A DNA stretch of 64,000 bases from Acidimicrobiales bacterium (GCA_028285495.1 JANQPB010000022.1:1969-65968); one strand, 5' to 3'; shown: positions 2,431 to 39,274, counted from the first letter of the stretch. Numbers and translations: made by a program. The notes: generated from the sequence alone by a model not told the origin.

Positions 2431-2635
2431 CGGCTCTCCTGCTGCTCGGGTTCGGCGACGATCGACGAGACCGGACGCTCGTGCTCGCTGGCCGCAGCAT
2501 AGTGATCGCGCCTGCGCCGGGTCGTCGCCGGCCCGCGGCCGAAGCTCATCACGGCGCCGGCATCGCCGACGGAATCGCATGGATCGACGAAGCATCGACG
2601 GAATTCTTGGCGGTAGATGATTGACTGGTCGGGTC

Positions 2636-4156
<1,521 letters not shown>

Positions 4157-4287: not shown

Positions 4288-5976
<1,689 letters not shown>

Positions 5977-7201: not shown

Positions 7202-7269
7202 GCGCCGCCGCTCCCCTGGTCCCCGGCCGGGCCCCCGCATAGCCTGTGGCCCATGGGGACGGAGCGCAC

Positions 7270-12043: not shown

Positions 12044-12621
12044 GGTCGACGACGGGACCGGCGGCCCGTACCGCCGGCACGCTCCTCCTCGCCGGACTCC
12101 TCGCCGGACTCCTCGCCGGGCTCGTCGCCGGTTGCGGTGACGACGCCGATGCCCTCGCCCAGACGACGATCGACGTCGTCGGCGTCGACTACGGCTTCGA
12201 GGGCCTCCCCGACGAGGTGGCGGCCGGCAGCGAGATCGTCTTCCGCAACGAGAGCGAGGTGGAGGTGCACGAGTTCGTCGCCCTCCGGCTCGACGACGGT
12301 GACGACCGCAGCGCCGCCGACCTGCTGGCCCTGCCCCCCGAGGAGCTCGGTCCGATGCTGGCCGACGTCTCGTCGGTGATCATCGCCCCGCCGGCGGTCG
12401 ACGGCACCGCCGCCGATGGCTTCGTTGTCGATGGATCCGCCACCCTCGACGATCCGGGCCGCTACGTGATCTTCTGCCTGATCCCGACCGGCGCCGACCC
12501 CGAGGCCTACCTGGCGGCAGCGGCCGAGGCCGAGGGCGGCCCCCCAGACGTGCCCGGCGGTCCCCCGCACGCGGTCGAGGGGATGGTGGCGGAGGTCGTG
12601 GTGCGAGGGGCCTCGGGCTGA
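12040..12621 (+). CDS. Secreted lipoprotein, possibly cupredoxin-like
   Basis: Signal peptide with lipobox LVAGC. The start overlaps the cupin stop (ATGA at 12040-12043). The beta-rich body carries His/Cys/His/Met candidates, but the spacing is atypical for type-1 copper. Confidence 0.6.
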
Positions 12622-12627
12622 GCGCCG

Positions 12628-12659
12628 ACGGCCGGGTCGGGTTGCTGCGACCCGGCCGT
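12628..12659 (+). terminator. Hairpin between the lipoprotein gene and nucS
   Basis: acggccgggtcg (12628-12639) pairs with cgacccggccgt (12648-12659), a 12-bp stem with an 8-nt loop. Confidence 0.55.
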
Positions 12660-12679
12660 CGAGCTGCTACACAGCAGGG

Positions 12680-13339
12680 GTGCGCCTCGTCATCGCCGAC
12701 TGCACCGTCGACTACGACGGCCGCCTCACCGCCCACCTGCCCCGGGCCACCCGGCTGATCATGGTCAAGGCCGACGGCTGCGTGGCCGTGCACGCCGACG
12801 GCGGGGCCTACAAGCCGCTGAACTGGATGAACGCCCCCAACCTTCTCGTCGCCGACGACGAGAAGTGGGTGGTCACCAACCCGAAGGGCGAGGCGCTGAC
12901 GATCACCCTGTACCAGGTGCTGAGCGACGTCAGCCACGACTTCGGCGACGACCCCGGGCTGCAGAAGGACGGCGTGGAGGCCCACCTCCAGGAGCTGCTG
13001 GCCGTCGATCCCGAACAGCTCGAGGACGGGCTGCGACTCGTGCGGCGGGAGTACCCGACCGAGATCGGTCCGGTCGACCTGCTGTGCCGCGACGCCGATG
13101 GCCGGGTGGTGGCCGTCGAGGTGAAGCGGCGGGGCGAGATCGACGGGGTCGAGCAGCTCACCCGCTATCTCGAGTTCCTCAACCGCCAACCCGACCTGTC
13201 ACCGGTCCGCGGGATGTTCGTCGCCCAGGAGATCAAGCTGCAGGCCAAGACGCTGGCCAACGACCGGTCGATCGACTGGGTCGAGGTCGACTACGACGTG
13301 TTGCGGGGCATCGAGCGACCACAGCAGAAGCTGTTCTAG
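12680..13339 (+). CDS. nucS: Endonuclease NucS (EndoMS), mismatch-specific endonuclease
   Basis: 219 aa with a GTG start. [33 protein letters not shown] and [29 protein letters not shown] are characteristic of NucS. Confidence 0.93.
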
Positions 13340-13346
13340 CGGGCTG

Positions 13347-16310
13347 CTAGCGCAGGTCGCCTCGATCGTCGACGCCGGGGACCGTCAGGTCGGCCCAGTC
13401 GGCCGCCGCGCCGTCGGCCAGCAGCCCGTCGAGCACGGTCCGGCCGAGGCGCTCGCCGATGGCCCGAACCGACCGGTCGAGCATCGTCGCATCGAGCGGG
13501 TGGGGACGGTAGCCGACCTCCCGCCCGACCCGACCGGCGAAACCGGCCAGCCGGGCGGCCGATTCGTCGTCGCCTCGGCGCTGGGCCAGGAGCGCACCCA
13601 TGCGTGTGGCCAGGGCCCGCCCGACCCGGGTGTCGGTGCGGAACGGCACGAACTCCTCGCCGGCCCGTTCGATGTCGCCGACGTCGACCGCGGCCAGGGC
13701 GAACTGCTGGCGCATCAGGAACTGGTGGAGGGTCACCCCGCCGGCCCGATCGATCCCCTCGGCCAGGATCAGCACGTCGGCTGAACGACCGGTCGCTCGG
13801 AGGGCGTGGGCCCGGCAGTAGATCAACACGCTCTCCTCCCAGACGCTGGTCGCCTCGATCCCGTCGATCGAGGCCAGGATCGAGCCGGGATCGTCGGACA
13901 CGACGGCCGCCGCCAGCCGGATGATCGGCATGGTGACGGTGGCCAGGCCGCGCTCGTCACCGAGGCCGTCGGTGGCCAGGATCTCGGCGAAGACCGCGGG
14001 CGAGCTCATCCACCAGGCCGGCAGCATCCGGTTGGTGACCGCCGCCCGCCACATGGGGTCACCGGCCTCCCGGAGGGCGCCGGTGGCATCGACCAGGAGC
14101 CGGTCGCTGGCGGCGAGGTCGTCGAGGGTCAGCTCGACCGCGATCGCATTGGCCAGCAGCCCGCGGGAGCTCGGGTCGTCGACCTCGTCGATGCGGCGCT
14201 CGGCTGCGGGGAGCAGCTCGGCCGATCGCTCGGCGTCGGCCATGTTGTGGGCATCGACGATGGCGTAGGCCAGCGCCCGATCGCTCAGCGGGGAGGCGGC
14301 GCCGGTGCCGAGCGTCCGCAGGCCGAGGGTCAGCCAGTGCAGCGACGCTCGACCGAGGCCGAGCCCCCAGAACACGAGCCGCAACGGCACGGCGAGATCG
14401 AGCAGGCGCTGGCCGGCTCCCGACTCGGCCGCCCGGGACAGCGCCACCCGGTAGTTGGCGAGGTCGCGGCGGCCGCCGTCGACCGGTGCGGGCTCAGCGC
14501 TCCGGAGCCGGTCGGTCAGCGCCCGGGCCCGGGCGGTGTAGTGGGCCAGATGTCGATCCCGGACACCGTCGGTCTCGCCGGCTGCGACCAACCGATCGAG
14601 CCCGAATCGGCGGACGGTCTCCAGCAGCCGATAGCGGGTGTCCCCGCCGGTGTCGCCATCGCCGACCGACAGCAGCGAGGCGTCGACCAGCCGGTTCAGC
14701 CCGTCGAGGACGTCGAAGTCGGACTGACCGTCGCCGGCGGCGACGGCCTTGGCGGCGTCGAGATCGAAGCCGTCGGCGAACACGCCGAGCCGGCGGAGGA
14801 GGACCTGGTCGGGCGGCGACAGCAGATCGTTCGACCAGTCCATCATCGCCTGCAGCGTCCGCTGGCGCTCGGCCGCCGTGCGGCTGCCACCGGTGAGGAA
14901 GCGGAAGCGGTCGTCGAGGTTGGCGTCGATGGCCTCGACCGACAGGACGTTCAGACGGGCGGTGGCCAGCTCGATGGCGAGCGGGATCCCGTCGAGGCGC
15001 CGGCACAGCCGGGCCACGGTCTCCCGGTTGGCCTCGGTCACGGCCACGTCCGGTCGCACGAGGCGAGCCCGGTCGGCGAACAACTCGACGGCGGAGCCGT
15101 CCGCCTCGACGCCGAGCGGTTGGACCAACCGGCGAGCCTCGCCAGCCACCCCGAGGGCCGAGCGGCTGGTCGCCAGTATCCGCAGCTCCGGGCACGACCG
15201 CAGCAGGTGGTCGACCAGCTCCGCCACCGGATCGAGCAGGTGCTCGGCGTTGTCGACGACGAGCAGCGCCCGCCGATCGACCAGCTCACCGACCACCTGG
15301 TCCCGGCTCGGCGTCGGGCCGTCGCCCGGTAGGGCCAGCGCGGCGGCAACGGCATCGGCCAGCTGGCCGCCGTCGTCGAGCGGGGCCACCTCGACCAGCC
15401 ACACGCCGTCGTGGCCGTCGGCCCGACCGTCGCCCGCCAATCGGCGGGCGACCTCGATGGCCAGGCGGGTCTTGCCGACGCCCCCGATGCCGGTCAGCGT
15501 GACCAGCCGGGCCTGGCCGAGCAGGCGCTCGATCTCCCCGAGCTCGTCGAGCCGGCCGACGAAGCTGCTGACCGGAGCCGGCAGGTTGTGACGCGGTCGC
15601 TCGAGCCGGCGGAGCGCTCGCTCGGCCAGGCGGGCGTCGATCGCCAGCGCCCGGTCTCGCACCTCGACGGCCGCTTGGCTCGGCACGACCCCGAGCTCGT
15701 CGGCGAGCACACGCTCCAGCTCCTCGAAACGGCGGAGCACGCCCTCGCGATCGCCGTCCTCGATCGCCGCCGTCATCAGTGCGACGTTGGCCTCCTCATC
15801 GGCCGGGTCGAGCCGCAGGACGTCCAGCCAGCGATCCCGGGCCCGGAGCAGGTCGAGCAGACGGAGCCGGAGCCGGGCCCTGGCCTCGATCGTCCACTCG
15901 GCGTACGGGATGTCGGGCAGCAGCTCGCCGACATCGGCCGCCAGGACCCGGTCGACGGCCTCGCCGTCACCCGGGTCGACCGTCAGGACGCGATGCACGT
16001 CGACGTCGACCTCGACGCCGGGGAAGAGGGCGACCACGCCGCCGCCGACCACGATCGCCGACTTGTCGCCGAGGGCCCGGCGAGCGTAGCTCGAGGCCTT
16101 GCTCAGGTTGTTCGAGGCGGTCGACGGTGCCGCATCGGGCCACAGGGCGTCGATCACCTGGTCGCGAGGGAGGCGTCGACGCTCGCTGAGAGCGAGGAGC
16201 TGGACCAGCTCGGCCGCCGCGGCCCGCTCGAAGTGACGCCGCTCCACCGTTCGACCGTCCAACTCGACCCGGAAGTCGTCGATCAGCGTCACCGTCACCT
16301 CGGCGGTCAC
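13347..16310 (-). CDS. AfsR/SARP-family regulator: wHTH + BTAD + NB-ARC (STAND) ATPase + helical-repeat C-terminus
   Basis: 987 aa with a GTG start. The N-terminus is SARP-like (LIDDFRVELDGRTV...QVIDALWPD). Walker A is GIGGVGKTRLA and Walker B-like LLVVDNAEH, followed by a long helical-repeat C-terminus. Confidence 0.85.
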   Translation of the reverse strand: MTAEVTVTLIDDFRVELDGRTVERRHFERAAAAELVQLLALSERRRLPRDQVIDALWPDAAPSTASNNLSKASSYARRALGDKSAIVVGGGVVALFPGVEVDVDVHRVLTVDPGDGEAVDRVLAADVGELLPDIPYAEWTIEARARLRLRLLDLLRARDRWLDVLRLDPADEEANVALMTAAIEDGDREGVLRRFEELERVLADELGVVPSQAAVEVRDRALAIDARLAERALRRLERPRHNLPAPVSSFVGRLDELGEIERLLGQARLVTLTGIGGVGKTRLAIEVARRLAGDGRADGHDGVWLVEVAPLDDGGQLADAVAAALALPGDGPTPSRDQVVGELVDRRALLVVDNAEHLLDPVAELVDHLLRSCPELRILATSRSALGVAGEARRLVQPLGVEADGSAVELFADRARLVRPDVAVTEANRETVARLCRRLDGIPLAIELATARLNVLSVEAIDANLDDRFRFLTGGSRTAAERQRTLQAMMDWSNDLLSPPDQVLLRRLGVFADGFDLDAAKAVAAGDGQSDFDVLDGLNRLVDASLLSVGDGDTGGDTRYRLLETVRRFGLDRLVAAGETDGVRDRHLAHYTARARALTDRLRSAEPAPVDGGRRDLANYRVALSRAAESGAGQRLLDLAVPLRLVFWGLGLGRASLHWLTLGLRTLGTGAASPLSDRALAYAIVDAHNMADAERSAELLPAAERRIDEVDDPSSRGLLANAIAVELTLDDLAASDRLLVDATGALREAGDPMWRAAVTNRMLPAWWMSSPAVFAEILATDGLGDERGLATVTMPIIRLAAAVVSDDPGSILASIDGIEATSVWEESVLIYCRAHALRATGRSADVLILAEGIDRAGGVTLHQFLMRQQFALAAVDVGDIERAGEEFVPFRTDTRVGRALATRMGALLAQRRGDDESAARLAGFAGRVGREVGYRPHPLDATMLDRSVRAIGERLGRTVLDGLLADGAAADWADLTVPGVDDRGDLR

Positions 16311-16587
16311 GGCCCGACCCTAACAGGCGGCCACCGCCGGCCGGACGGGCCGGCCCGGCCCCGATCGGGAAGCGACGGGGAAGGACTGCGGAAGCCCGGT
16401 CGTCGAGCGTGACGGCAACCGATCGAGACGAGACGAGGAACGGACCCGTGTACATCGACCCAACCACCCACCTCCGCCACCACGCGCAGCGAACCGGGGA
16501 ACGGCAACGACTGGCCTCCGAGCGCCACCTGGCCCGCCATCTTGCCCGTCGGCGGCGACGGTCGATCGTGCCCCTTCAACGAACGAA

Positions 16588-16699: not shown

Positions 16700-17572
16700 C
16701 TAGGACACGAACCTCACGCCACCGTTGTCGATCACCACCCGACCGTCGTCACCGCAGGTCTGGAAGACGGCACTGCCGTCGCCGTTGTCCCAGACCCGCA
16801 CGGTGAGCGCCTCGCCCGGCAGGACCGGCGAGCTGAACCGCCCCTCCATGCCGCTGAAGTTCTCCGGCTCCGACCCGCACAGGGTGTGGAGCAGGGCCCG
16901 GCCGGTGAAGCCGTAGGTGCAGAGCCCGTGCAGGATCGGCTTCGGGAAGCCGCCGACGTCGGAGAACTGCTTGTCGGAGTGCAGCGGGTTGCGGTCGCCG
17001 CACAGCCGGTACAACAGGGCCTGGTCCGGACGGGTCTGGTAGGTGACCTCGTAGTCGGGGCCACGGTCGGGGGCGACGTTCGGCCGCTCGCTCGGGCCCC
17101 GATCCCCGCCGAAGCCACCCTCGCCGACGATGAACACCGACGACATGAGCTCGTAGAGCGGCTCGCTGTCACCGACCAGCGTTGCCGTCGTCTTCGTGGC
17201 GACCACGGCCCCCTTGCCCTTGTCGTAGATGCCGGTGATCTCGTCGACGGTGTCGACCTCACCGTTGGTCGGCAGCGGCTTGAACAGGTTCACCCCCTGC
17301 TCGCCGTGGACCAGCATGCGGTTGTCCCACGTGCCGGCCTGTGACATGGCCGACTTGCCGCCCCTGGCGGTGAAGCCGGCCATCACGGCGAAGGTGGGGA
17401 ACACCTTCTGGTCGACCCCGGCGGTGTTCTCGGTGGTGAACTCCAGCTCGTAGCCGACCGGGTCCTCGACCCCGGCTCCGATCCCGAGGGCGTACAGCAG
17501 GCAGTCGTCGGCGTTCCAGCTGGCCCGGCGGGCCTCGCCTCTCGCACCGACGGCGTCTGGGTTGACGGGCAT
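16700..17572 (-). CDS. MaoC-like double hot-dog (R)-specific enoyl-CoA hydratase (MFE-2 hydratase-2 type)
   Basis: 290 aa with YRLCGDRNPLHSD and GFPKPILHGLCTYG. The RBS GAAGGAG precedes the ATG. Confidence 0.85.
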   Translation of the reverse strand: MPVNPDAVGARGEARRASWNADDCLLYALGIGAGVEDPVGYELEFTTENTAGVDQKVFPTFAVMAGFTARGGKSAMSQAGTWDNRMLVHGEQGVNLFKPLPTNGEVDTVDEITGIYDKGKGAVVATKTTATLVGDSEPLYELMSSVFIVGEGGFGGDRGPSERPNVAPDRGPDYEVTYQTRPDQALLYRLCGDRNPLHSDKQFSDVGGFPKPILHGLCTYGFTGRALLHTLCGSEPENFSGMEGRFSSPVLPGEALTVRVWDNGDGSAVFQTCGDDGRVVIDNGGVRFVS

Positions 17573-17626
17573 CTCGTGCTCCTTCTCTCGGCGTCGTTCG
17601 ACGGTGACGTCCGGCGGGGGTGCCGG

Positions 17627-18553
17627 CTAGTACGGCGTCGGTCGGCCGGGGCCGGTGACCGGGGCGCCCTGCATGTCGGAGTTCGGCTGGGCCTCGGCCA
17701 TCAGCTGCTTGACCGCCTGAGCCATCTCGGTCGGGTCGTCGACCGGCTCGATCGTCGGGCCACGGTGCCACATGTTGGCGATGCCGAGCACCCGTCCGGA
17801 GGCCTCGAAGACCCGGCCGGTCACCGGGGCCGACTCGGCGGAGGCCAGCCAGGTGCAGATCGGGGCGATCCACCGGGGGTGCATCATCTCCTTCTCCTCG
17901 TCGCTGGCCTGGCCCATGCCGAGGTTCTCGGTCATGCGGGTCAGGGCGCCGGGGGCGATGGCGTTCACGGTGACGCCGTAGCGGTGCAGCTCCTGGGCGG
18001 CGATGATCGTGAAGGCGGCGATGCCGGCCTTGGCGGCGCCGTAGTTGGTCTGGCCGGGGTTGCCGTAGATGCCGGAGACCGAGCTGGTGTTGATGATCCT
18101 GGCGTCGTTGGTCTCGCCGGCCTTGGCCCGCTCACGCCAGTAGGCGGCGGCCCACCGGGCCGGACCGAACGTGCCCTTGAGGTGGACCTTGATGACGGCG
18201 TCCCACTCCTCCTCGGTCATGTTCGACAGCATGCGATCGCGGAGGATGCCGGCGTTGTTGACGACCACGTCGAGACCGCCGAAGGTCTCGATGGCCTGGT
18301 TGACCATCCGCTGGGCGCCCTCCCAGTCGGACACGTCGTCGCCGTTGGCGACGGCCTCGCCGCCGCCCTCCTTGATGAGCTCGACCACTTCCTGGGCCGG
18401 GGTCATGGTGCCGCCGCTGCCGTCGACCTCGCCGCCGAGGTCGTTGACCACGACCTTGGCCCCGTGCTGGGCCAGCATGAGCGCGTGCTCGCGCCCGATG
18501 CCTCGTCCGGCGCCGGTGACGATGGCCACCCGTCCTTCACACAATCCAGTCAT
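17627..18553 (-). CDS. SDR family oxidoreductase (MFE-2 dehydrogenase / 3-hydroxyacyl-CoA dehydrogenase-like)
   Basis: 308 aa with VTGAGRGIG, NNAG, and the S...YGAAK catalytic pattern. Confidence 0.85.
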   Translation of the reverse strand: MTGLCEGRVAIVTGAGRGIGREHALMLAQHGAKVVVNDLGGEVDGSGGTMTPAQEVVELIKEGGGEAVANGDDVSDWEGAQRMVNQAIETFGGLDVVVNNAGILRDRMLSNMTEEEWDAVIKVHLKGTFGPARWAAAYWRERAKAGETNDARIINTSSVSGIYGNPGQTNYGAAKAGIAAFTIIAAQELHRYGVTVNAIAPGALTRMTENLGMGQASDEEKEMMHPRWIAPICTWLASAESAPVTGRVFEASGRVLGIANMWHRGPTIEPVDDPTEMAQAVKQLMAEAQPNSDMQGAPVTGPGRPTPY

Positions 18554-18672
18554 CAGTACCTCTTGTCGGTTCTGTCGATCGGCCGACCCGCCGGCGGAGC
18601 GGCCACGAGCTGCTCCACGACCCCGCGCCGGCCGGCTCGGCCGGTCCGATCGGGGCCCGTCGGGGGTGACCT

Positions 18673-21600
18673 GTGGCCCCGATCATGACACAGGCCCGCT
18701 CGGCCGACGAAAAGGGACATGACCTCACCGCGACCGGGCCGGCGACTACATTGGTCGCACTCGGCGGAAGACCTCTTCTTGATGATGGGAGCGCTGGCCC
18801 CGGGTCGGTGCCGGTGTGGACAGCGAGGACGGCGAGGGCAGTGGAACCATCCGATTCGCCAGCGGAAGAACACGCGGCGGACGGCCCGCCGAGCGCCGGG
18901 TCACCCGATGCGCCGACGGCGCTCGACGATCGGGGTGGTGAGCCGGAACAGTCCGAGAGCGAGCCGGACGGCGGGTCCGAGGTCGCCGTCGAGACCGCCG
19001 ACGGGCTGACGATCGAGGCCGACCCGGACGGGATCTCGGTCGACGAGTGGCTCGAGGTCGACGCGGCCCCGGCCGACGACGGCGACGCCTCATCGGCGTC
19101 GGCCCCGGCGCCGCCGTCCCTGCCATCGGCGGCAACCGTCGGTGACGGCGGGGCCGACGAGACCGTCCAGATCACCGCCGACATGCTGGCCCCGCCGACC
19201 CCGACCGCGCTGCCCGGTGCCGGCCAAGGCCAGGCGACGGCCGACGACGTGAACGGAAGCGGAGGCGGGAAGGGGTCGGGGGCCGGTGGCCCGCTCGACG
19301 GGGCCGCGGCGGCCGACGGGGCGGTCGGCGAGCCCGGCGGTGCCGATGGCGAGTCCACCACCGGCACCGCCGATACCGACCCGACCACCGGCGACGAGAC
19401 GGGCACGGCCGCCGCCGCCACGACCACCGGCGACACGGGCGCCGCCGATACCGACCCGACCACCGGCGACGCCGACACCGATCCGCCCGGCATCGCCACC
19501 AACGACGAGACGGGCACCGCCGCCGCCACGACCACCGGCGACGCCGAGGCGACCCTCGCCGACACGGAGGCCGCCGGCGACGCCGACCGCCGGACCACCG
19601 GCGACGACAACGAGACCACCGGCGACGAGACGGGCACGGCCGCCGCCGACGCGACCACCGGCGACGCCGACACCCAGGCGGCCGACGCAGGCGACGGCGA
19701 CGCCGAATCGGCGACCGACGCCGACACCGAGACCACCGGCGACGACGCCGGCGCCGCCGACGCGACCGACGGCGACGCTGCGGCCACCGCCCCGGTGCCT
19801 GCCGTCGTCCGCGACGGCGACGAGCCGCTCGACGCGACGGCGGTCATGCCGGCGGTGCCCGCCGTCGAGCCGGCCTCGCCGCCGCCGACCGAACCCCGGC
19901 GGACCGGCCGGCGGCTGGTCCTGGCCACGATCGGGACGGCCGTGGTCCTCTACCTGCTGCTCGCCGCCGCCTGGGCGGTCGACTCGGCCACCCACCGCGA
20001 CCGGGCGATGCGGGGCGTGCACCTCGAGGACATCGACGTCGGTGGCGAGGATCGCGACGGCATGGGCGATGCCATCGACACCCTGACCGAAGCGCTGGCG
20101 GCCTCGCCGCTCGAGGTGTCGGTGGGTACGACCACCGTCGCCACCGACCCGGTGACGATGGGCGCGGTGCCGGACGGCGACACGATGATCGACGAGGCCC
20201 TCGAGGCTCGGCGAGGTGGCTTCCTGCCCGTCCGCCCGATCACCTGGGCGGCCGGTCTGTTCAGCCGGCACACGGTGCCGGCCCGCTACCTGGTCGAGCC
20301 GGTCACCACCCGTCGCGGCGTCGACGCGGTGATCGAGCCGGCGCTCGCCGAGGCGGTCGAGCCCGGCCTCGAGTTCGACGGCCGCTCGATGGTGCTCGTG
20401 CCCGGATCGCCCGGCGTCGCCGTCGACCCCGAGGCCGTGATCGATGCGCTGCCCGCCACCATCGAGGACGGCGAGCCGTTCCGCCTCGAGGTCGACGAGC
20501 TGGAGGCTGCGCCGACGTTCAGCGACGACGACATCGCCACCCTGGCCGACGAGCTCAACGAGGCCACCTCCGAGCCGATCACCGTGCGGGTGCTCGACCA
20601 GGAGGCGGCCGTCTCGCCGAACAGCCAGCGGTCGTGGATCGAGCTCGACACGTCCGACGGCGCCGCCGGTTGGACGGTCGACGAGCGAGCCGCCCTCGAC
20701 GAGCTGCAGCCGCTCTTCCCCGCGCTGGGGTCGGAGGACCAGCAGGCCCGCTTCGAGGTGGTCGACGGCGAGCCGATCATCATCCCGGCGGCCGAGACGG
20801 TCGTCTGCTGCGAGGACGGCGCGGCCGAGACGCTGGTCGAGGCCATCTCGTCGCCCATCCCGGTCCCGAGCGACGACGCCGACGACGAGGACGACGCTGC
20901 GACCGACGACGGGGAGGAGGCCGAGCCCGAGCTCCGGGTCGCCCAGCTCGAACCGAAGATCACCGGGTTCGACGAGGGAGTGGCCGAGCTGGAGACGTTG
21001 GGGATCGTCGAGCTGGTCTCCACGTTCACCACCGAGCACGCCTGCTGCGAGAACCGGGTCAGGAACATCCAGCGCTTCGCCGACCTGATCCAGGGCACGA
21101 TCATCCGGCCGGGCGAGGAGTTCTCGCTGAACGGCGCCGTCGGTCGCCGAACCCGGGAGAACGGCTTCTTCGCCGCCGGGGCCATCGCCCAGGGCAACTT
21201 CGAGGACCAGGTCGGCGGCGGTATCAGCCAGTACGCCACGACGTTCTTCAATGCCGCCTTCTTCGCCGGCATCGAGTTCCTCGAGTACCAGTCGCACTCG
21301 ATCTACATCTCGCGCTATCCCCGGGGCCGGGAGGCGACGATCTCCTGGCCGCGGCCCGACCTCAAGGTCCTCAACAACACCCCGTACGGGATCCTCGTCT
21401 GGAACGAGTACACGCCGACGTCGATCACGGTCTCCTTCTACTCGACCGACCACCTCGAGGTGGAGGCGCTCGATCGGCGCCGATCGTCGGATCGCCAGTG
21501 CCGGATCGACATCACGCCACGCCAGATCACCTTCCCGGACGGCACGGTCGAGGAGGACACGGTCCGGGCGATCTACCGGCCGGGCGAGGGGCTCGACTGC

Positions 21601-24562: not shown

Positions 24563-25669
24563 TCAGCGGCCCGGCAGGCCGTCGATGGCGCGCGTCGCCT
24601 CGGACACGAGGTCGTCCATGACGTCGGCGACCGGACGCAGCTCGGAGGCGTAGCCGATCCCCTGCCCCGCCCCCGAGTGCAGCAATGGCTCGACGCCGTG
24701 CTCGTCGATGGCACCGAGCAGATCGCCGACGAGCACGTCCTGGTACGGCATGCGCAGGGGCTCCGGTGCGTCCGGGGCGTCCCACTCGTCGCTCCAGGCC
24801 GAGCGGATCTGACGGAAGGTCTTGCCGCTCTCGGATCGGGTGACGACGGTGTCGGCCGATCCCGCGGCCAGCAGCTTCGGCACCAGCTTGGGATGGAGGT
24901 GGGCGGCGTGCTCCGTCGTCGTCAGCCACGTCGTGCCGAGCCACACGCCCTGGGCGCCCATGGCCAGTGCGGCGGCGATGTGGCGGCCGGTGGCCACGCC
25001 GCCGGCCGCCAGCACCGGCACCCGACCGTCCGAGCCATCGGCCACGGCGTCGACGATCTGCGGGATCAGTGTGAAGGTCCCGATCGGTCCGGTGTGGGCG
25101 CCGGCGTCGTAGCCCTGGGCCACGATGATGTCGACCCCGGCCTCGAGCGCCCGGCGGACGTGGCGGGGGCTGCCGATGAGTGCCGCCGTGGTCTTGCCGA
25201 GCTCCCGGGCCCGCTCGACCGCCGGCCTCGGCGCCCCGATCCCACAGGCGAACAGGTCGACGTCGGAGGCCATGACCGCCTCGAGCTGGTCGCTCTCGAT
25301 CTCGGCCGAGCGGATGAACCGGGTCCGCATGCCGGGACCGCTGGGGTCGGGCACGTCGTACTTGTCGATCAGGCCGGCGACGAACGCACGGTGCTCGTCG
25401 GGGATGTGGCGCTCGATGTCGGCCCGGCTGTTGTGCTCGGGCATCCCGTCGGGCAGGACGAGGTCGACCCCGAACGGCCGATCGCCGACGAGGCGGCGGA
25501 TCTCGGCCAGCTCGTCGGCGATCTCGTGTGGGAACCGCCTGGTCGCCCCGTAGACGCCGATCCCACCGGCGTTGGTGATGGCGGCGACGGTGGTGATGTC
25601 ATGGGCGAAGCCGAAGATCGGGTGCTCGATGCCGAGCTGGTCGACCACCGGGGTGCGCAGTGCGGACAT
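24563..25669 (-). CDS. Nitronate monooxygenase (NMO / 2-nitropropane dioxygenase) family FMN enzyme
   Basis: 368 aa with IEHPIFGFAH, IVAQGYDAGAHTG and AAGGVATGRHIAAALAMGAQGVWLGT. Confidence 0.85.
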   Translation of the reverse strand: MSALRTPVVDQLGIEHPIFGFAHDITTVAAITNAGGIGVYGATRRFPHEIADELAEIRRLVGDRPFGVDLVLPDGMPEHNSRADIERHIPDEHRAFVAGLIDKYDVPDPSGPGMRTRFIRSAEIESDQLEAVMASDVDLFACGIGAPRPAVERARELGKTTAALIGSPRHVRRALEAGVDIIVAQGYDAGAHTGPIGTFTLIPQIVDAVADGSDGRVPVLAAGGVATGRHIAAALAMGAQGVWLGTTWLTTTEHAAHLHPKLVPKLLAAGSADTVVTRSESGKTFRQIRSAWSDEWDAPDAPEPLRMPYQDVLVGDLLGAIDEHGVEPLLHSGAGQGIGYASELRPVADVMDDLVSEATRAIDGLPGR

Positions 25670-25718
25670 GGCCGGACGTTAGTCGCCGTCGCCGGTCCGG
25701 CCGAACTACGTTGGATCG

Positions 25719-26714
25719 ATGGCTTCGTCATCCTCCGATCGACCCGACGTCGTGAGCGGTCGGTCCGACCTGCCCCCGGCCGACTACATCGAGGAGACCC
25801 GCCGGCTGTACGACTCGCTCGGCTACGACGCCTACCGCTGGGCCGAGCGCCCGGAGACGGCGCCGTGGACGCCGCTGACGAAACCGCTGTCGGAGTCACG
25901 GGTGCTGCTGATCGGCTCGGGTGGGCTCTACCGCCACGGCCAGATCGCCTTCCACACGAGGGACGACACGTCGATCCGGGTCATCCCGAGCGACGTCGAC
26001 ACCGCCGAGCTGCGGACCGCCCACTTCGCCTACGACCAGGCCGACGCCCGCACCGACCCGAACTGCGTGTTCCCGCTCGATCGGCTGCGGGAGCTGGTCG
26101 ACGACGGCACGATCGGCGGGCTGTGCGAGGAGGCGTACGGGTTCATGGGCGGCATCTACTCGATCCGCCGGATGGAGGCGGAGACGGCGGCGCTGCTCGA
26201 GGAGCGGTGCCGGGCCCAGGAGCCCGACGTCGTGCTGCTCGTCCCCGTTTGACCGGTCTGCCATCAGTCGGTCGGTCTGATCGCACGACACCTGGAAGGC
26301 GCCGGCTTCCCGACGATCGGGTTCACCTCGGCCTACTCGATCACCGCATCGACGAATCCGCCCCGCTCGGTGTTCCTCGACGTCCCCCTCGGCCACACCA
26401 CCGGCGGCCCGAACGACCCCGAGACGCAACGGTCGATCGTCCGAACCGGCCTGCAGGCGGGCGCGGCGATGGCGGGGCCGGGCACGATCATCGATCTCCC
26501 GTGGCGCTGGCGTGACGACGGGTGGAAGGCCGACCCGCTCTCGTGGAGTCGGCGCCGCCAGGACGCCGGGCAGAGCGGCAAGCCGGCCGGCGACACGAGG
26601 ACCGCACGCTCACCGGAGCCCCGGTACCAGTCCGACGGCGACCGGGCCGCGGCCGAAGCCCGCAGCCACGACGAGCAGTGTCTCGTCTGCCTCGGGATCC
26701 CGGACCCGAGCTGA
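25719..26714 (+). CDS. GrdB/PrdB-family (glycine/betaine/sarcosine/D-proline reductase B-like) protein with an in-frame TGA at 26250-26252, candidate selenocysteine codon
   Basis: ORFs 25719..26252 and 26370..26714 share one frame, and my translation finds no other stop between them. The junction reads VVLLVPV-TGA-PVCHQSVGLIARHLEGAGFPTIGFTS, a U-x-x-C context. Upstream lies DPNCVFPLDRLRELVDDGTIGG. Both halves have coding-like composition. Confidence 0.6.
26259..26285 (+). other. SECIS-like hairpin 6 nt downstream of the in-frame UGA
   Basis: UGCCAUCAG (26259-26267) pairs with CUGAUCGCA (26277-26285) with one C.C mismatch. The 9-nt loop is UCGGUCGGU. Folded by eye only. Confidence 0.35.
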
Positions 26715-26765
26715 CCTGACCCTGCCGGCCGACCGACGCCTGTCGGCATGGTGGTTTCGCCCAAC

Positions 26766-26876
26766 GTGGAACACCGGTTCCACGACCACACCAGGTGGAA
26801 CACCGGTTCCATGACCACACCAGGTGGAACACCGGTTCCACGATGAGCGGACCACGACGTGGAACGGCGGTTCCAC
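26766..26876. repeat. Four tandem 18-bp palindromes GTGGAAC-N4-GTTCCAC (29, 29 and 35 bp spacing)
   Basis: Copies lie at 26766-26783, 26795-26812, 26824-26841 and 26859-26876. Copies 1-3 sit in a near-perfect 29-bp unit. Coordinates were anchored on stops 26714 and 26975 and on the listed GTG-start ORFs at 26795, 26824 and 26859. Confidence 0.9.
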
Positions 26877-26974
26877 AGGTGCCGGACGCGGGTCGGGTGG
26901 TCAACAACCGGCGCGACCGATCTGCCCGCAGACCGACGCCGTCGGCCGATCGACCCGGTCGGCGATCGATCGAC

Positions 26975-27790
26975 TCAGCCGGCGAGGTCAGCCGGGGGGC
27001 CGGTGACCGGGTCGAAGTCCGGCGGACGCTTCTCGAGGAAGCTCGACACGCCCTCCTTGAAGTCCGACCGCTTCAGCGACGCCCGCATGAAACCGTTCGA
27101 CTCGGTCATCGCCTGATCGAGCGGCAACTGCGGATGGCGGTAGACCTGGTGCTTCATGATCGCCATCGACGTCGGGGCGGCGTTCGTCGCCAGGTCGTCT
27201 GCGTAGGCCAGGGTCTCGTCGAGCAGCCGGTCCGGCGGGTAGACCCGGGCCACCAGCCCGAGCTCCTTCGCCTCCTCCGCCAGCACGACCCGGCCGGACA
27301 GCAACAGGTCGAGGGCGTTGGCCTGGCCGACCAGGCGGGGCAGCGTCCACGAGATGCCGTGCTCGGCGATCAGCCCCCGGCGGCTGAACGCCGTGGTGAA
27401 CTTGGCCCCCTCGGCCGCGAACCGGATGTCGCAAGCCACGGCGTGAACCAGACCGAGGCCGGCGCAGGCCCCGTTGACGGCGGCGATGATCGGCTTGGGA
27501 ATCGACATCGCGTAGGTGGCATCCCGGGTGTCGGGCTCACCGCCGCCTCCGGATCCGCCGCTGCCGATGCCCTGCAACACGTCCATGTCGGCCCCGGCGC
27601 AGAACCCGCGGCCGGCGCCCGTCACCACGATCGCAGCCACCTCGGGATCGGCGGCGGCCCGGTCGAGCGAGTCGAAGTAGCCGGCTGCGAGATCGGCGTT
27701 CCAGGCGTTGAGTCGCTCGGGTCGGTTGAGCGTGACCAGGGCCACCCGGCCCCGGACCTCGTAGAGCACGGCATCGGCAGCGGTTGACAT
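26975..27790 (-). CDS. Enoyl-CoA hydratase/isomerase family protein
   Basis: 271 aa with VALVTLNRPERLNAW and VTGAGRGFCAGADM, plus a Gly-rich insert GSGGSGGGG. Confidence 0.88.
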   Translation of the reverse strand: MSTAADAVLYEVRGRVALVTLNRPERLNAWNADLAAGYFDSLDRAAADPEVAAIVVTGAGRGFCAGADMDVLQGIGSGGSGGGGEPDTRDATYAMSIPKPIIAAVNGACAGLGLVHAVACDIRFAAEGAKFTTAFSRRGLIAEHGISWTLPRLVGQANALDLLLSGRVVLAEEAKELGLVARVYPPDRLLDETLAYADDLATNAAPTSMAIMKHQVYRHPQLPLDQAMTESNGFMRASLKRSDFKEGVSSFLEKRPPDFDPVTGPPADLAG

Positions 27791-29355: not shown

Positions 29356-30144
29356 TCATCGCCCGCGGAACGCCGGATCCCGCTTCTGGAGGAAGGCGTC
29401 GATCGCCTCCCGCGTGTCGGACGTGGCGAAATTCACGGTCTGGGCCATGCCCTCGGCCTCGAGGGCCGAGGGGAAGTCGGCCGAGGCGTTGAAGGTCAGG
29501 AGCCGCTTGGTCATGGCCATGGCCAGCGGCGGGCCGGCGGCGAGCCTGGACGACCAGTCGTCGACGAAGGCGTCGAGCTCGTCGTGGGCCACGACGTGGT
29601 TGACGAACCCGAACCGCTCGGCGTCTGCGGCCGAGATCACGTCGCCGAACAGCGCCAGCTCCTTGGCCTTGTGGAGCCCGATCAGCCGGGGCAGGATCCA
29701 CGTGCCGCCGAAGTCGACGCTGAGCCCACGCCGGGCGAAGATCTCCGAGAACCGGGCCTGATCGCTGGCCACGATCAGGTCGCAGGCCAGCGCCATGTTC
29801 ATGCCGGCGCCGGCGGCAACGCCGTTCACCTTGGCGATCACCGGCACCATGATCGAGTAGAGGGCCTGGATCGTCCGGTGGATCATGTTCATCGCCTGGA
29901 GCTGGTGCATGTCCCGGTCGCCCCCGCCGCCGAGGTCGGCCCCCGAGCAGAACCCGTCGCCGGCACCGGTCATGACAACGCAGCGGACGGTCGGGTCGAG
30001 CCCGATCTCGTCCCACGTCTGGCGCAACTCGTCCCACATCGTGCCGTTGGCCGCGTTCTTCTTCGCCGGCCGGTTCATGGTGACCGTCACCACCCCGTCG
30101 TCGGTGACGTCGACCAGCAGCGTTTCCATCTCTCGGGAGTCCAC
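29356..30144 (-). CDS. Enoyl-CoA hydratase/isomerase family protein
   Basis: 262 aa with VVTVTMNRPAKKNA, MTGAGDGFCSGADL and VNGVAAGAG. Confidence 0.88.
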   Translation of the reverse strand: MDSREMETLLVDVTDDGVVTVTMNRPAKKNAANGTMWDELRQTWDEIGLDPTVRCVVMTGAGDGFCSGADLGGGGDRDMHQLQAMNMIHRTIQALYSIMVPVIAKVNGVAAGAGMNMALACDLIVASDQARFSEIFARRGLSVDFGGTWILPRLIGLHKAKELALFGDVISAADAERFGFVNHVVAHDELDAFVDDWSSRLAAGPPLAMAMTKRLLTFNASADFPSALEAEGMAQTVNFATSDTREAIDAFLQKRDPAFRGR

Positions 30145-30203
30145 GGCCAGACGCTACCCGTCGGCAATCAACCGCACGAAAACGTCGGATTCCCGCAGCG
30201 GAC

Positions 30204-32651
30204 GTGCAAGGCTGGGCCGCCATGGAGCGCAAGGCTGGAGAACTGTTCGTCGGCGAGCGGATCGAGACGGGCTCGGGCGACCGCACCGGCGAGCCCGTCC
30301 TGCTCGACTCGGGCGACTTCACCACCCACGGGGTGATCGTCGGCATGACCGGCTCGGGCAAGACCGGCCTCGGCGTCGTCCTGCTCGAGGAGGCGCTGCT
30401 GGCCGGCATCCCGGTGCTGGCCATCGACCCAAAGGGCGACCTCGGCAACCTGTGCCTGACGTTCCCCGACCTCGATGCCGCCAGCTTCGAGCCGTGGATG
30501 GATGCCGGCACCGCCAGGGTCGAGCAGACGACCACCGCCGACCTGGCCGCCTCGACCGCCGACCTGTGGCGCAACGGCCTGGCCTCGTGGGGGCTGGACG
30601 GCGGCGACGTCGGCGCCCTGCAGCGGGCGGCCGACCCGGTGATCTACACGCCCGGATCGGACGCCGGGGTGCCGGTCGACGTGCTCGGCCGGCTCAGCGT
30701 GCCCGCCACCGACGACCCGTCGGCCCGCCAGGACGAGGTCGACTCGACCGTGTCCGGCCTGCTCGGCCTCGTGGGGATCGACTCCGATCCCCTCTCGGGC
30801 CGGGAGCACATCCTGCTGGCCAACCTGATCGCCCGGTCGTGGGACGAGGGCAAGGACCTCGACCTGCCGACCCTGCTCGGCCAGATCCTCGACCCGCCAA
30901 TGCGCAAGCTCGGTGTGCTCGACCTCGACTCGTTCTTCCCCACCGGCGACCGCAACGCCCTCGTGATGAAGCTCAACGGCCTGCTGGCCTCGCCGTCGTT
31001 CGCAGCCTGGGCCGAGGGCGCCCCGCTCGACATCGAGCGGCTGCTCTACCACGACGACGGGCGGGCCAGGGCGGCGGTGATGTCGCTCGGCCATCTCGAG
31101 GAGTCGGAGCGGCAGTTCGCGGTCACCCTGATCCTGTCGAAGCTGATCTCGTGGATGCGGACCAAGCCCGGCACCGGCGAGCTGCGTGCGCTCGTCTACA
31201 TCGACGAGGTGATGGGCCTCGCCCCGCCGAACGGCAACCCGCCGCCCAAGAAGCCGATCCTGACCCTGCTCAAGCAGGCCAGGGCCTTCGGCGTCGGCCT
31301 CGTGCTGTCGACCCAGAACCCGGTCGACCTCGACTACAAGGCGATCTCCAACGCCGGCACGTGGCTGATCGGCCGGCTCCAGACCGAGCAGGACAAGAAC
31401 CGACTGGTCGACGGGCTGAAGGCGGCCGACGGCGGCGTCGACATCACGACCGTCAACGAGACGATCTCGGCCCTGGGCAAGCGCCAGTTCCTGCTGCGGA
31501 CCACCCGCTCGTCCGAGCTGCCGGTGCTGACCACCCGGTGGGCGATGAGCTACCTGGCCGGCCCGCTGACCCGCGACCAGATCGACCGGCTGATGGCCGA
31601 CGACCGGGCCGCACTGGTCGGCGGTGAGGCCGCAGGCGCCGCCGGCACCGGAGCCGGACCGGGCCAGCCGGCGGCGGCCGCCCCTGCCCCGGCCACCGGG
31701 CCCCGACTGGCCGACGACGAGTCGGCCGTCCATCCCCCGGTCCCCGACTCGCTCGCCGTCCGCTACGCCCGCCCCGCATCGCCCTGGCTGGTCGACCTCG
31801 ACGCCACACCGGGCGGCGACCGGCTGCGGCCGGCGCTGGCCGCCCGCGTCGGCCTGGTCTACGACGAGCGGGCCGCCGACCTCCGCCACACCGACGAGTG
31901 GGAGGCCATCATCCCCGTCGGGCCGGACGGGTTCGACGTCGACGCCGCCGTCCCGGTCGACTTCGACGACCGCGACTTCGCCACCGACGCCCCCGATGGT
32001 GCCGTCTACATCCTCCCGGCCGACGACATCACCGCCGGCGATCTCCGCAAGGTGCCATCGGCGATCAAGAACCGGCTGGTGGCCGACCAGACGCTCACCC
32101 TCCGACGCAACCGGGAGCTGAAGCTGTGGTCCCGCCCCGGCGAGACCCCCGAGGCGTTCGCCCTCCGCTGCCAGGCGGCGGCCGACGACGGGGCCGACGC
32201 CGACGCGGCCAAGATCCGCGACCGGCTGGAGTCGAAGCGGGACAAGCTCGAGGCGGCGCTGGCCAAGGCCGAGGACCGGGTGGCCGAGCTGGAGGTCCAG
32301 GCCGACGGCCGCAAGCAGCAGCAGTGGATCGACGTCGGCACGTCGATCCTCGGCGGCCTCCTCGGCGGGCGAGGCCGGAGCCGGGGCCTGGCCTCGGCGG
32401 CCAGGCGGGTGTCGTCCGGGCGTCGGCAGTCGGCATCGGCCGAGGCCAGGCTCGAGTCGGCCCAGAACCGGGCGGCGGAGAAGATCGACGACATCGAGGA
32501 GCTCGAGGTCGAGCTGCAGGAGGCCCTTATCGAGATCGACGACGAGTGGTCGGCCAAGGCCGAGGCGGTCGAGGACGTCGAGGTCCCGCTGGAGAAGTCC
32601 GACATCACGGTCGAGGACCCGGTCCTGGTCTGGCTCCCGATCGAGCGCTGA
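30204..32651 (+). CDS. HerA/FtsK-superfamily (DUF87/DUF853-like) P-loop ATPase with a long uncharacterised C-terminal half and coiled coil
   Basis: 815 aa. Walker A is GMTGSGKTG and Walker B ALVYIDEV. LVLSTQNPVDLDYKAISNAGTWLIGRLQTEQDK is typical of HerA-like C-terminal modules. The C-terminus has heptad-like KIRDRLESKRDKLEAALAKAEDRVAELEVQ. Confidence 0.75.
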   Translation: MQGWAAMERKAGELFVGERIETGSGDRTGEPVLLDSGDFTTHGVIVGMTGSGKTGLGVVLLEEALLAGIPVLAIDPKGDLGNLCLTFPDLDAASFEPWMDAGTARVEQTTTADLAASTADLWRNGLASWGLDGGDVGALQRAADPVIYTPGSDAGVPVDVLGRLSVPATDDPSARQDEVDSTVSGLLGLVGIDSDPLSGREHILLANLIARSWDEGKDLDLPTLLGQILDPPMRKLGVLDLDSFFPTGDRNALVMKLNGLLASPSFAAWAEGAPLDIERLLYHDDGRARAAVMSLGHLEESERQFAVTLILSKLISWMRTKPGTGELRALVYIDEVMGLAPPNGNPPPKKPILTLLKQARAFGVGLVLSTQNPVDLDYKAISNAGTWLIGRLQTEQDKNRLVDGLKAADGGVDITTVNETISALGKRQFLLRTTRSSELPVLTTRWAMSYLAGPLTRDQIDRLMADDRAALVGGEAAGAAGTGAGPGQPAAAAPAPATGPRLADDESAVHPPVPDSLAVRYARPASPWLVDLDATPGGDRLRPALAARVGLVYDERAADLRHTDEWEAIIPVGPDGFDVDAAVPVDFDDRDFATDAPDGAVYILPADDITAGDLRKVPSAIKNRLVADQTLTLRRNRELKLWSRPGETPEAFALRCQAAADDGADADAAKIRDRLESKRDKLEAALAKAEDRVAELEVQADGRKQQQWIDVGTSILGGLLGGRGRSRGLASAARRVSSGRRQSASAEARLESAQNRAAEKIDDIEELEVELQEALIEIDDEWSAKAEAVEDVEVPLEKSDITVEDPVLVWLPIER

Positions 32652-38012: not shown

Positions 38013-38092
38013 GCGGCCGAGTGGTCCGCCGTCGGTCGTGGTCTCCGATGCTCGACATGCGTCGGTCGCTCGCCCTCCCGTAGGCTCGCACC

Positions 38093-39274
38093 ATGCCTGA
38101 AGTCGTGATCGTCGATGCCGTCCGCTCCCCCATCGGTCGCCGAAACGGTGGCCTGTCCGGCCTCCATCCCGCCGAGCTGCTGTCGATGGTGCAGCGCGAG
38201 CTGATCGACCGCACCGGGATCGACCCCGCCTCGGTCGGCCAGGTCGTCACCGGCTGCGTGAGCCAGGTTGGCGAGCAGTCCTACAACGTCGGCCGCACGG
38301 CCTGGCTCGCCGCCGGGCTCCCGCTCGAGGTCCCGGCCACCACGGTCGACACCCAGTGCGGTTCGTCGCAACAGGCCACCAACCTCGGCACGGCGCTGGT
38401 CCAGGCCGGCGTCGTCGACGTCGCCGTCGCCTGCGGCGTCGAGGTGATGAGCCGGATCCCGATCGGCTCCAACTCGTCCAAGAAGCTGGGTCTCGGCATC
38501 CCGATCCCGAAGCCGTACTTCGACGAGTACGAGATGACGAGCCAATTCGAGGGGGCCGAGCGCATCGCCGACAAGTGGGGCATCACCCGCGACGACGCCG
38601 ACCAGTTCGGCCTCCGCTCCCAGACGCTGGCCGCCCAGGCCTGGGCCGAGGAGCGCTTCGCCACCCAGGTGCTGCCGATCGACGCCCCCGTCCTCGACGA
38701 CGAGGGCAAGCCGACCGGCGACACCAAGCGCATCGAGCGCGACGAGGGCCTGCGTGACACCACGATCGAGGCGCTGGCCGGGCTCAAGCCGGTGGCCCGT
38801 GAGAACGGCGTGCACACGGCAGGCTCGTCCTCGCAGATCTCCGACGGCGCCTCGGCGGTGCTGCTCATGACCGCCGAGAAGGCGGCCGAGCTCGGCATGA
38901 CGCCGAAGGCCCGCATCGTCGACACGTGCCTGGTCGGGGTCGATCCGGTCCTGATGCTGACCGGCCCGATCGACGCCACCCGCCACCTGTTCGAGCGCAC
39001 CGGCATGACGATGGGTGACCTGGACCTCGTCGAGATCAACGAGGCCTTCGCCTCCGTTGCCCTGGCCTGGGCCCGCGAGCTCGACGCCCCGATGGATATC
39101 GTCAACCCGAACGGTGGCGCCATCGCACTGGGCCACCCCCTCGGAGGCACCGGCGCCTTCCTGATGACCAAGGCGGTGCACGAGCTGGAGCGATCCGATT
39201 CCTCGACCGCCCTGATCACGATGTGCTGTGGCGGTGGCCTGGGAACCGGAACGATCATCGAACGACTCTCGTAG
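38093..39274 (+). CDS. Acetyl-CoA C-acyltransferase (thiolase)
   Basis: 393 aa starting MPEVVIVDAVRSPIGRRNG. Active-site motifs are VDTQCGSSQQA, NPNGGAIALGHPLGGTG and CCGGGLGTG. Confidence 0.92.
   Translation: MPEVVIVDAVRSPIGRRNGGLSGLHPAELLSMVQRELIDRTGIDPASVGQVVTGCVSQVGEQSYNVGRTAWLAAGLPLEVPATTVDTQCGSSQQATNLGTALVQAGVVDVAVACGVEVMSRIPIGSNSSKKLGLGIPIPKPYFDEYEMTSQFEGAERIADKWGITRDDADQFGLRSQTLAAQAWAEERFATQVLPIDAPVLDDEGKPTGDTKRIERDEGLRDTTIEALAGLKPVARENGVHTAGSSSQISDGASAVLLMTAEKAAELGMTPKARIVDTCLVGVDPVLMLTGPIDATRHLFERTGMTMGDLDLVEINEAFASVALAWARELDAPMDIVNPNGGAIALGHPLGGTGAFLMTKAVHELERSDSSTALITMCCGGGLGTGTIIERLS

Follow-up and report, generated by a model that had tools for sequence, protein, structure and literature searches.

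A PrdB-like gene of an Acidimicrobiales bacterium with an in-frame UGA that almost certainly encodes selenocysteine

The stretch of DNA analysed here (64,000 nt from an Acidimicrobiales bacterium, GCA_028285495.1 JANQPB010000022.1:1969-65968; below called the window) contains at positions 25719-26714 a coding region that is interrupted by an in-frame TGA. We conclude with high confidence that this region is one gene for a selenoprotein of 330 residues belonging to the GrdB/PrdB superfamily, and that its UGA at 26250-26252 would be decoded as selenocysteine (Sec) through SelB and tRNA-Sec, directed by a hairpin in the mRNA. The UGA is almost certainly the Sec codon of a single PrdB-like redox enzyme and, judged from sequence, the protein is probably a stand-alone PrdB-like selenoprotein and not a D-proline reductase. 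Selenoproteins of the type 'PrdB (UxxC)' have been known from metagenomes since 2005 (PMC1088965); the present protein is a fresh member of that family, in a lineage that is apparently undocumented for Sec use. An earlier note on this DNA, made from the sequence alone, had read the TGA as a recoded Sec codon, and this proved essentially correct, as the same TGA is found in 80/80 orthologous loci, falls on a column occupied by Cys in full-length homologs and is followed by a constrained reading frame.

One gene, translated through the UGA

The gene opens with ATG 25719, and the open reading frame (ORF) called there (25719..26252, 177 codons) ends in ...EPDVVLLVPV, immediately ahead of TGA 26250-26252. 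The same frame continues for 153 further codons (26253-26711, PVCHQSVGLIARHLE...EQCLVCLGIPDPS) up to a stop TGA at 26712-26714, and the second ORF listed in this region (26370..26714) simply begins at the earliest GTG of that phase. In the joined product of 330 residues the UGA is residue 178 and the partner Cys is residue 181, the codon context TGA-CCG-GTC-TGC being that of a U-x-x-C motif. The ORF coordinates, the 153-codon continuation, the GTG at 26370 and the U-x-x-C context had all been given in the earlier note and were exact on recheck. The note had also described both halves as protein-like, in agreement with their G+C contents at third codon positions (GC3, Table 1), which carry the coding signature of a 72% GC genome on both sides of the TGA.

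The conservation of this arrangement was followed by scanning one genome per species (185,579 species), which gave 552 loci encoding relatives. The best 80 of these, from Acidimicrobiales/Acidimicrobiia and Binatia ('delta proteobacterium') metagenome-assembled genomes, were aligned over both halves and analysed; their best-segment protein identity is ~51-91%, across two phyla. Counts given below for 81 sequences refer to these 80 orthologous loci and the window. The earlier note had proposed to compare TGA with TGC in relatives, and the codon preceding PVCHQ[ST] is TGA in every one of the 80 loci, the consensus after it being PVCHQS[VI]GL.AR; given this uniformity, the observation is far beyond chance. 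The frame following the TGA is open in every locus, with a median length of 152 codons, and the sole short case leaves the end of its contig. Residues +1 to +12 after the TGA hardly vary, and their codons differ synonymously at +2, +3, +4 and +12. Codon differences from the window number 1601 synonymous and 1242 nonsynonymous in the 60 codons that follow the TGA, against 1244 and 1939, respectively, in the 60 that precede it. From these counts, the downstream half is translated, and purifying selection acts on it more strongly than on the upstream half.

A plain pseudogene, in which a nonsense mutation has struck a decaying Cys-type PrdB-like gene, would fit a single sequence with an in-frame stop, and standard gene callers do return two pieces in the window, as had been predicted, with ~35 database relatives ending at the same column. 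We consider the probability of this explanation to be negligible. It is excluded because the TGA is conserved in all 80 loci, in two phyla, and the half that follows it is open and more constrained than the one that precedes it; the additional stops or frameshifts whose presence, according to the earlier note, would indicate decay were found in none of these loci. Nor are the orthologs copies of one assembly artefact, a possibility excluded because of the range of divergence that they cover (51-91%). Alternatively, the region could specify two separate polypeptides, i.e., a 177-aa N-terminal protein and a C-terminal protein that restarts at the in-phase GTG 26370. Such a restart is extremely improbable, and we exclude it because the 39 codons between TGA and GTG, which would be left untranslated, contain the best-conserved peptide of the protein (PVCHQSVGLIAR) and align with the catalytic CxxC region of PrdB.

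The identity of the residue at the UGA column is indicated by homologs that read through it. When the joined product was used as query in a protein search, ~35 close relatives of ~182-200 aa (60-91% identity) were obtained, all ending in ...LLVP[VL], as well as a few full-length relatives that read ...LVPV-C-PVCHQSVGLIAR... across the same position. In every full-length homolog examined, the UGA column corresponds to the first Cys of a conserved CxxC, including clostridial PrdB, where it reads GG-C-GTC-HRS; the alignment that the earlier note had suggested as a check, of the TGA against Sec/Cys columns of the family, thus came out in favour of its proposal. Bacterial selenoproteins are typically recognised by just such an exchange of Sec and Cys at the nucleophile of a redox CxxC. 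In a census of 1.84 billion cluster representatives, 1,241 related clusters (50% identity) were found, 470 of them at E <= 1e-10, and the outcome at the Sec column was classified by alignment for the best 150 of the 1,241: 91 proteins stop exactly at this column, ten read through with Cys, two read through with Ser or Asp, and 47 are fragments or unclear. Cys is therefore present in 10 of the 12 read-through representatives. A metagenome scan for a Cys version of the exact peptide gave one match only, and the Cys control for codon usage (see below) stays small. These proportions can be set beside published counts for 'proline reductase PrdB' (pfam07355, UxxC), namely 42 Sec versus one Cys form in the Sargasso Sea (PMC1088965) and 235 Sec versus 110 Cys forms in GOS (PMC2398784), where PrdB UxxC proteins rank among the most abundant selenoprotein families of ocean metagenomes (PMC1088965; PMC2398784).

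RNA constraint after the UGA and the case for selenocysteine

In bacteria, Sec insertion sequence (SECIS) elements are hairpins that directly follow the UGA and carry a G in their small apical loop (PMC1088965). The candidate hairpin of the window begins 6 nt past the UGA, and its G-U-containing apical loop lies 13-17 nt past it, depending on register, which agrees with the distance of about 15 nt put forward in the earlier note. The spacing rule of bSECISearch is said to be 16-37 nt to the apical loop. In the first possible register (A), arms 26259-26269 and 26275-26285 enclose the apical loop GGUCG (26270-26274), with mismatches C26262.C26282 and U26268.U26276. The SECIS-like hairpin of the earlier note (26259-26267 with 26277-26285) is the outer part of this structure: its pairing, its single C.C mismatch and its start at 6 nt were recovered, and it extends inward via U26268·U26276 and C26269-G26275 to a 5-nt loop, while covariation and single-sequence folding lent it no support (see below). 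In the second register (B'), 26260-26265 pair with 26270-26276 around the loop AGUC (26266-26269), leaving C26273 bulged. Compensatory changes occur in individual orthologs: locus L067 has CCAGACC-GUG-GGUCUGG, with pairing kept through S→T and I→V substitutions, and in L034 C15 pairs with G31. The Binatia loci carry TCC…GGA, giving two extra pairs.

Since the 27 nt in question encode a nearly invariant peptide, their synonymous sites were compared with those of other conserved columns for the same amino acid, taken from the same alignment and hence the same phylogeny. Gly +8 is encoded by GGT or GGA in 80/81 sequences (1% GGC+GGG), whereas GGC+GGG make up 59-86% at all 13 other Gly columns. 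Leu +9 is CTG in 81/81, compared with 40-59% for the top codon at 10 other Leu columns; Gln +5 is CAG in 81/81, compared with 66-81% at four other Gln columns; and GCA accounts for 63% of codons at Ala +11, compared with 1-13% at seven other Ala columns. In Cys-type homologs the same peptide is written with GGG/GGA/GGC, CTC/CTG/CTA and GCC/GCG/GCT, a comparison that comprises only ~5 independent sequences. In a second test, the same peptide was re-encoded with the genes' own codon usage and the hairpin energies were compared. The real sequences have a mean of -8.4 kcal/mol versus -5.5 kcal/mol for the recodings, 35 of the 81 falling in the lowest 5%, and the window hairpin has -8.8 kcal/mol versus a mean of -5.4 kcal/mol for its own synonymous recodings. 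On sequence grounds, the 27 nt after U-P-V are under an RNA-level constraint that is consistent with a bacterial SECIS of ambiguous register.

The two registers are also reflected in the wobble bases of the His and Gly codons (26264 and 26276; alignment columns 15 and 27), whose combinations are tightly coupled: C/T in 40 sequences, T/A in 31, T/T in eight and C/A in one. The T/A combination completes register A and C/T favours register B'. Although no pair forms between these two bases themselves, they are coupled across the orthologs, a pattern that may stem from two alternative conformations of the SECIS or from effects of lineage. As a separate observation, the Cys-type (TGC) locus L082 retains at 640-687 a full register-A hairpin (CAT…GGA CTG ATC, -11.1 kcal/mol), unlike other Cys forms; from its sequence, this could mark a recent conversion of Sec to Cys.

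Several results weigh against the proposed explanation. Register A is weak in roughly half of the orthologs, those of the CAC+GGT type, whose minimum-energy fold is a shifted hairpin, and the fold of a single 61-nt sequence is uninformative, being no better than shuffles (z = 0.07). Pair covariation among the 81 sequences does not exceed shuffles for register A, for register B' or for a rival helix in which the GA of the UGA is paired (columns 2-9 with 21-28). It fails to reach significance because the core pairs never vary, and it was replaced by the synonymous-site and recoding tests described above. An Rfam scan of the whole window gave no match at the gathering threshold, and a permissive local scan gave only a chance match to mir-341 (E = 3.3); these negatives carry little weight, as Rfam covers bacterial SECIS elements poorly (bioRxiv 10.64898/2026.04.03.716425). 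No tRNA-Sec was called by ARAGORN in the window or in 60 loci, and none of the corresponding genes was found when the window and 87 loci were searched by tblastn with SelA, SelB and SelD of E. coli, the flanks of relatives searched for Sec machinery amounting to ~1.4 Mb. The genes of the Sec machinery need not be linked to a selenoprotein gene. Lastly, genes of acyl-CoA metabolism are abundant in these genomes and the immediate neighbours of the gene vary, and for this reason the functional inference drawn from them below is weak. No paper that deals with Sec in Acidimicrobiales or in Binatia turned up in the library searched. On the side of the tRNA search, ARAGORN produced some over-long calls of 92-101 nt (4710-4810 on the minus strand of L036, 4692-4791 on the minus strand of L039, and 2435-2531 and 19932-20023, both on the minus strand, listed with L016), labelled tRNA-Leu(caa), tRNA-Trp(cca), tRNA-Gly and tRNA-Pro, none with a UCA anticodon. 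Two of these calls share their relative position between related loci, and the calls are probably spurious, arising within a conserved gene.

With no Sec machinery in the sequence searched, one might think of read-through that does not involve Sec, either by near-cognate insertion of Trp, Cys or Arg or by a lineage-wide reassignment of UGA. We regard this as very unlikely. UGA is the main stop codon of the window (26/36 genes) and also ends the gene itself, here and in 46 of the 80 orthologous loci; therefore the recoding is site-specific and involves no change of the genetic code. The column concerned is that of the nucleophilic Cys of a CxxC, in a family for which UxxC selenoproteins have been published (PMC2398784), and the RNA-level constraint sits directly after the UGA. 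Moreover, for Actinomarinales, another order of Acidimicrobiia, the Sec machinery is reported to be universal (bioRxiv 10.64898/2026.04.03.716425).

Decoding as Sec can be framed in a mechanism of the following kind. The SelB·GTP·Sec-tRNA-Sec complex would be recruited by the small hairpin within the 27 nt that begin 6 nt past the UGA. Sec178 would be placed three residues ahead of Cys181, in the loop that leads from the beta-strand LLVPV to the N-terminal end of a helix (CHQSVGLIARHLE). Redox centres of the U/CxxC type classically have their Sec or Cys at such a junction between a strand and a helix N-terminus. In analogy to the chemistry of PrdB and GrdB (PMC13188914), the selenolate of Sec178 would attack the substrate, Cys181 would by the same analogy resolve the adduct to a selenenyl-sulfide, and a dithiol would re-reduce the latter; this could be thioredoxin or possibly, as a matter of speculation, the protein's own C-terminal CxxC tail. 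An AlphaFold (AF2) model (m4e5102fce113) was made of P0024, a natural Cys homolog that is 47% identical, and has a predicted local distance difference test (pLDDT) score of 88.7 and a predicted template modelling (pTM) score of 0.91. Its CxxC is flanked by strand 169-173 on one side and by the N-terminal end of helix 177-192 on the other. A fold search of the Protein Data Bank (PDB) with this model gave no significant match (best E = 0.06) and a sequence search of the PDB no meaningful one, and the GrdB/PrdB fold appears to be without a solved structure in the PDB copy searched.

Table 1. Features of the selenoprotein gene in the window (positions counted from its first nucleotide)
Feature	Position	Strand	Observations
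CDS part 1, 177 codons	25719..26249	+	N-terminal motif YIxxTRxLYxxLGYxxYxWA, peculiar to the stand-alone subfamily, and first half of the PrdB-homologous core; GC3 0.93
In-frame UGA, putative Sec codon (residue 178), U of U-P-V-C	26250..26252	+	TGA in 80/80 loci; Cys in full-length homologs
CDS part 2, 153 codons and TGA stop (26712-26714)	26253..26714	+	Open in all loci; GC3 0.89
TGC, partner (resolving) Cys of U-x-x-C	26259..26261	+	Cys in 81/81 sequences
SECIS-like hairpin, register A	26259..26285	+	Core pairs invariant, frozen synonymous sites, recoding test
Alternative hairpin, register B'	26260..26276	+	Preferred by orthologs with CAC + GGT
PrdB-homologous core, residues 48-266, across the UGA	25860..26516	+	TIGR04483 E = 2e-45; GRDB 32.6 bits
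C-terminal extension with terminal C-x-V-C (Cys codons 26679-26681 and 26688-26690)	26517..26711	+	Without counterpart in classical PrdB

Prd partners and gene neighbourhood

The classical operon around Clostridium PrdB (L090) has the contiguous order prdC-prdA-prdB-proline racemase. When PrdA, PrdC and the racemase of this operon were used in tblastn searches, no match was obtained in the 64-kb window or in 87 related loci (<= ~21 kb each), whereas the PrdB control of the same search matched all 88 subjects across the TGA. The protein is considered not to be a D-proline reductase because no gene for the pyruvoyl subunit PrdA lies nearby in any of the 88 loci. It could in principle be a genuine PrdB whose PrdA and PrdC are encoded elsewhere in the genome: PrdB (TIGR04483) is its top NCBIfam match (E = 2e-45), and JGI labels some of the relatives 'D-proline reductase (dithiol) PrdB'. 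Against this, its 155 bits stay far below the 300 required for the equivalog, the window and related loci lack PrdA, PrdC and the racemase in spite of the contiguity of the classical operon, and the N- and C-terminal extensions with a terminal CxxC are not found in classical PrdB. In addition, the carriers are Acidimicrobiia and Binatia, which are not Stickland fermenters. Taken together, a genuine D-proline reductase is improbable, and a stand-alone PrdB-like selenoprotein is the reading that we retain.

The only neighbour common to both phyla is an enoyl-CoA hydratase gene, present at 54 of the 80 loci and located directly downstream in convergent orientation in 23. The gene directly upstream most often codes for a geranylgeranyl-reductase-like flavoprotein (15 loci), an acyl-CoA synthetase (10) or an acyl-CoA dehydrogenase (9), and a short-chain dehydrogenase/reductase (SDR) is found downstream in 12 of the 80. 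Cys homologs are accompanied by LysR regulators, an AMP-binding enzyme, a family III CoA-transferase or a TctC binding protein. These recurrent neighbours weakly suggest a carboxylate or acyl-CoA substrate.

The window itself is an ordinary chromosomal stretch, rich in genes of beta-oxidation type. They are found at 16700-18682 (-), 7243-8115 (+), 24563-25669 (-), 26975-27790 (-), 29356-30144 (-) and 38084-39274 (+), and the set comprises a MaoC/MFE-2 hydratase, SDRs, three enoyl-CoA hydratases, a nitronate monooxygenase (NMO)-type FMN oxidoreductase, whose gene diverges from the selenoprotein gene, and a thiolase. Four further regions, 13347-16319 (-), 12482-13339 (+), 1-3411 (-) and 30108-32651 (+), are listed together with genes for a large BTAD/AAA(NACHT-like) regulator of ~990 aa, the mismatch endonuclease NucS, a Sortilin/BNR-repeat protein of > 1,100 aa that extends past the start of the window, and a HerA-like ATPase, whose gene keeps its synteny with that of the selenoprotein at 33 loci of Acidimicrobiia. 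A scan of 25400-27000 for consensus promoters and terminators gave no match. A scan of the window for further selenoprotein candidates, i.e., in-frame TGA codons with coding signal on both sides, returned ordinary adjacent genes only.

Protein family and comparison with known systems

The protein passes the Pfam model GRDB (PF07355) over residues 91-153, with 32.6 bits against a gathering threshold of 22 (E = 7e-8). Its best NCBIfam match, PrdB (TIGR04483), aligns residues 48-266 with positions 18-236 of the 238 in the model and spans the UGA, and at 155.1 bits fails the equivalog cut-off of 300. The selenoprotein-B subfamily model TIGR01918 likewise remains below its cut-off (40.7 versus 65.45 bits), as do TIGR01917 and NF040794/5, the models for GrdB/F/H, at 36-43 bits, the cut-offs of the whole group ranging from 65 to 800. 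Assignment to the GrdB/PrdB family, as made in the earlier note, hence stands at the level of the Pfam domain, and finds no support in the cut-offs of the PrdB and selenoprotein-B models or in any PrdA or PrdC nearby. The C-terminal extension of ~65 residues contains DTRTxR..PxYQ..DRxAA followed by a second C-x-V-C, and a terminal CxxC is present in 71-72 of the 81 orthologs, in both Acidimicrobiia and Binatia; it could serve as an internal electron relay or as a metal site. Very tentatively, these proteins may be taken further, as a distinct stand-alone selenoenzyme family that combines the PrdB-like core with the N-terminal YIxxTR..GY..Y.WA and the C-terminal DTRT..PxYQ..CxxC, and that would act without a pyruvoyl partner on a substrate of the carboxylate or acyl-CoA type, mostly with Sec. 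This idea is possible but doubtful. Such a family would be widespread, with the 552 loci and 1,241 clusters given above, and would occur in Acidimicrobiia, Binatia and marine Proteobacteria.

The way in which the gene is annotated has consequences for how the family is perceived. Public databases hold it mostly as fragments of ~160-200 aa that end at the Sec column (P0001 and ~35 others; P0083-P0232), and a marine gammaproteobacterial relative (P0064) ends at the same place. The closest relative bears the NCBI label 'glycine/sarcosine/betaine reductase selenoprotein B family protein', yet ends at 182 aa. As the database proteins stop at the Sec column, the catalytic half and the C-terminal CxxC tail are invisible to downstream analyses. 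The gene implies the use of Sec by this Acidimicrobiales-type lineage and by Binatia. The label 'proline reductase', in use since 2005, is probably wrong for the stand-alone branch; if so, one of the most abundant environmental selenoprotein families would be without a known substrate or a solved structure.

Compared with PrdB of clostridial D-proline reductase (26 kDa), residues 48-266 are homologous (37-39% identity), and the Sec/Cys-x-x-Cys motif occupies the same alignment position after a beta-strand, as U-P-V-C here and as C-G-T-C there. The present protein differs by ~45 extra N-terminal and ~65 extra C-terminal residues, the latter with the second CxxC, and by VPV-U-PVCHQS in place of GG-C/U-GTCHRS. 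GrdB, GrdF and GrdH belong to the same Pfam family, GRDB, and match weakly over residues 91-245, including the Sec region. GrdB, in contrast, is ~430 aa long and has UxxCxxC (PMC13188914), whereas the 330 residues described here contain U-P-V-C-H-Q-S without a third Cys, and no gene of the GrdA/GrdE type is among the recurrent neighbours. As regards the RNA, the candidate resembles bacterial SECIS elements in its start 6 nt after the UGA, its small G-U loop and its frozen synonymous sites within coding sequence; it departs from them in having two possible registers, no support from covariation and no match in Rfam.

The closest counterparts are the PrdB selenoproteins of metagenomes (PMC1088965; PMC2398784), with which the protein shares the Pfam domain and the U-x-x-C motif. 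In both cases Sec forms greatly outnumber Cys forms, here at a ratio of ~91:10 among the best 150 representatives, and the carriers are environmental bacteria and not Stickland fermenters. Those papers do not split off a stand-alone subfamily, and the likeness drawn here is one of domain and motif. What sets the present member apart from them is its origin in a high-GC genome of Acidimicrobiales type.

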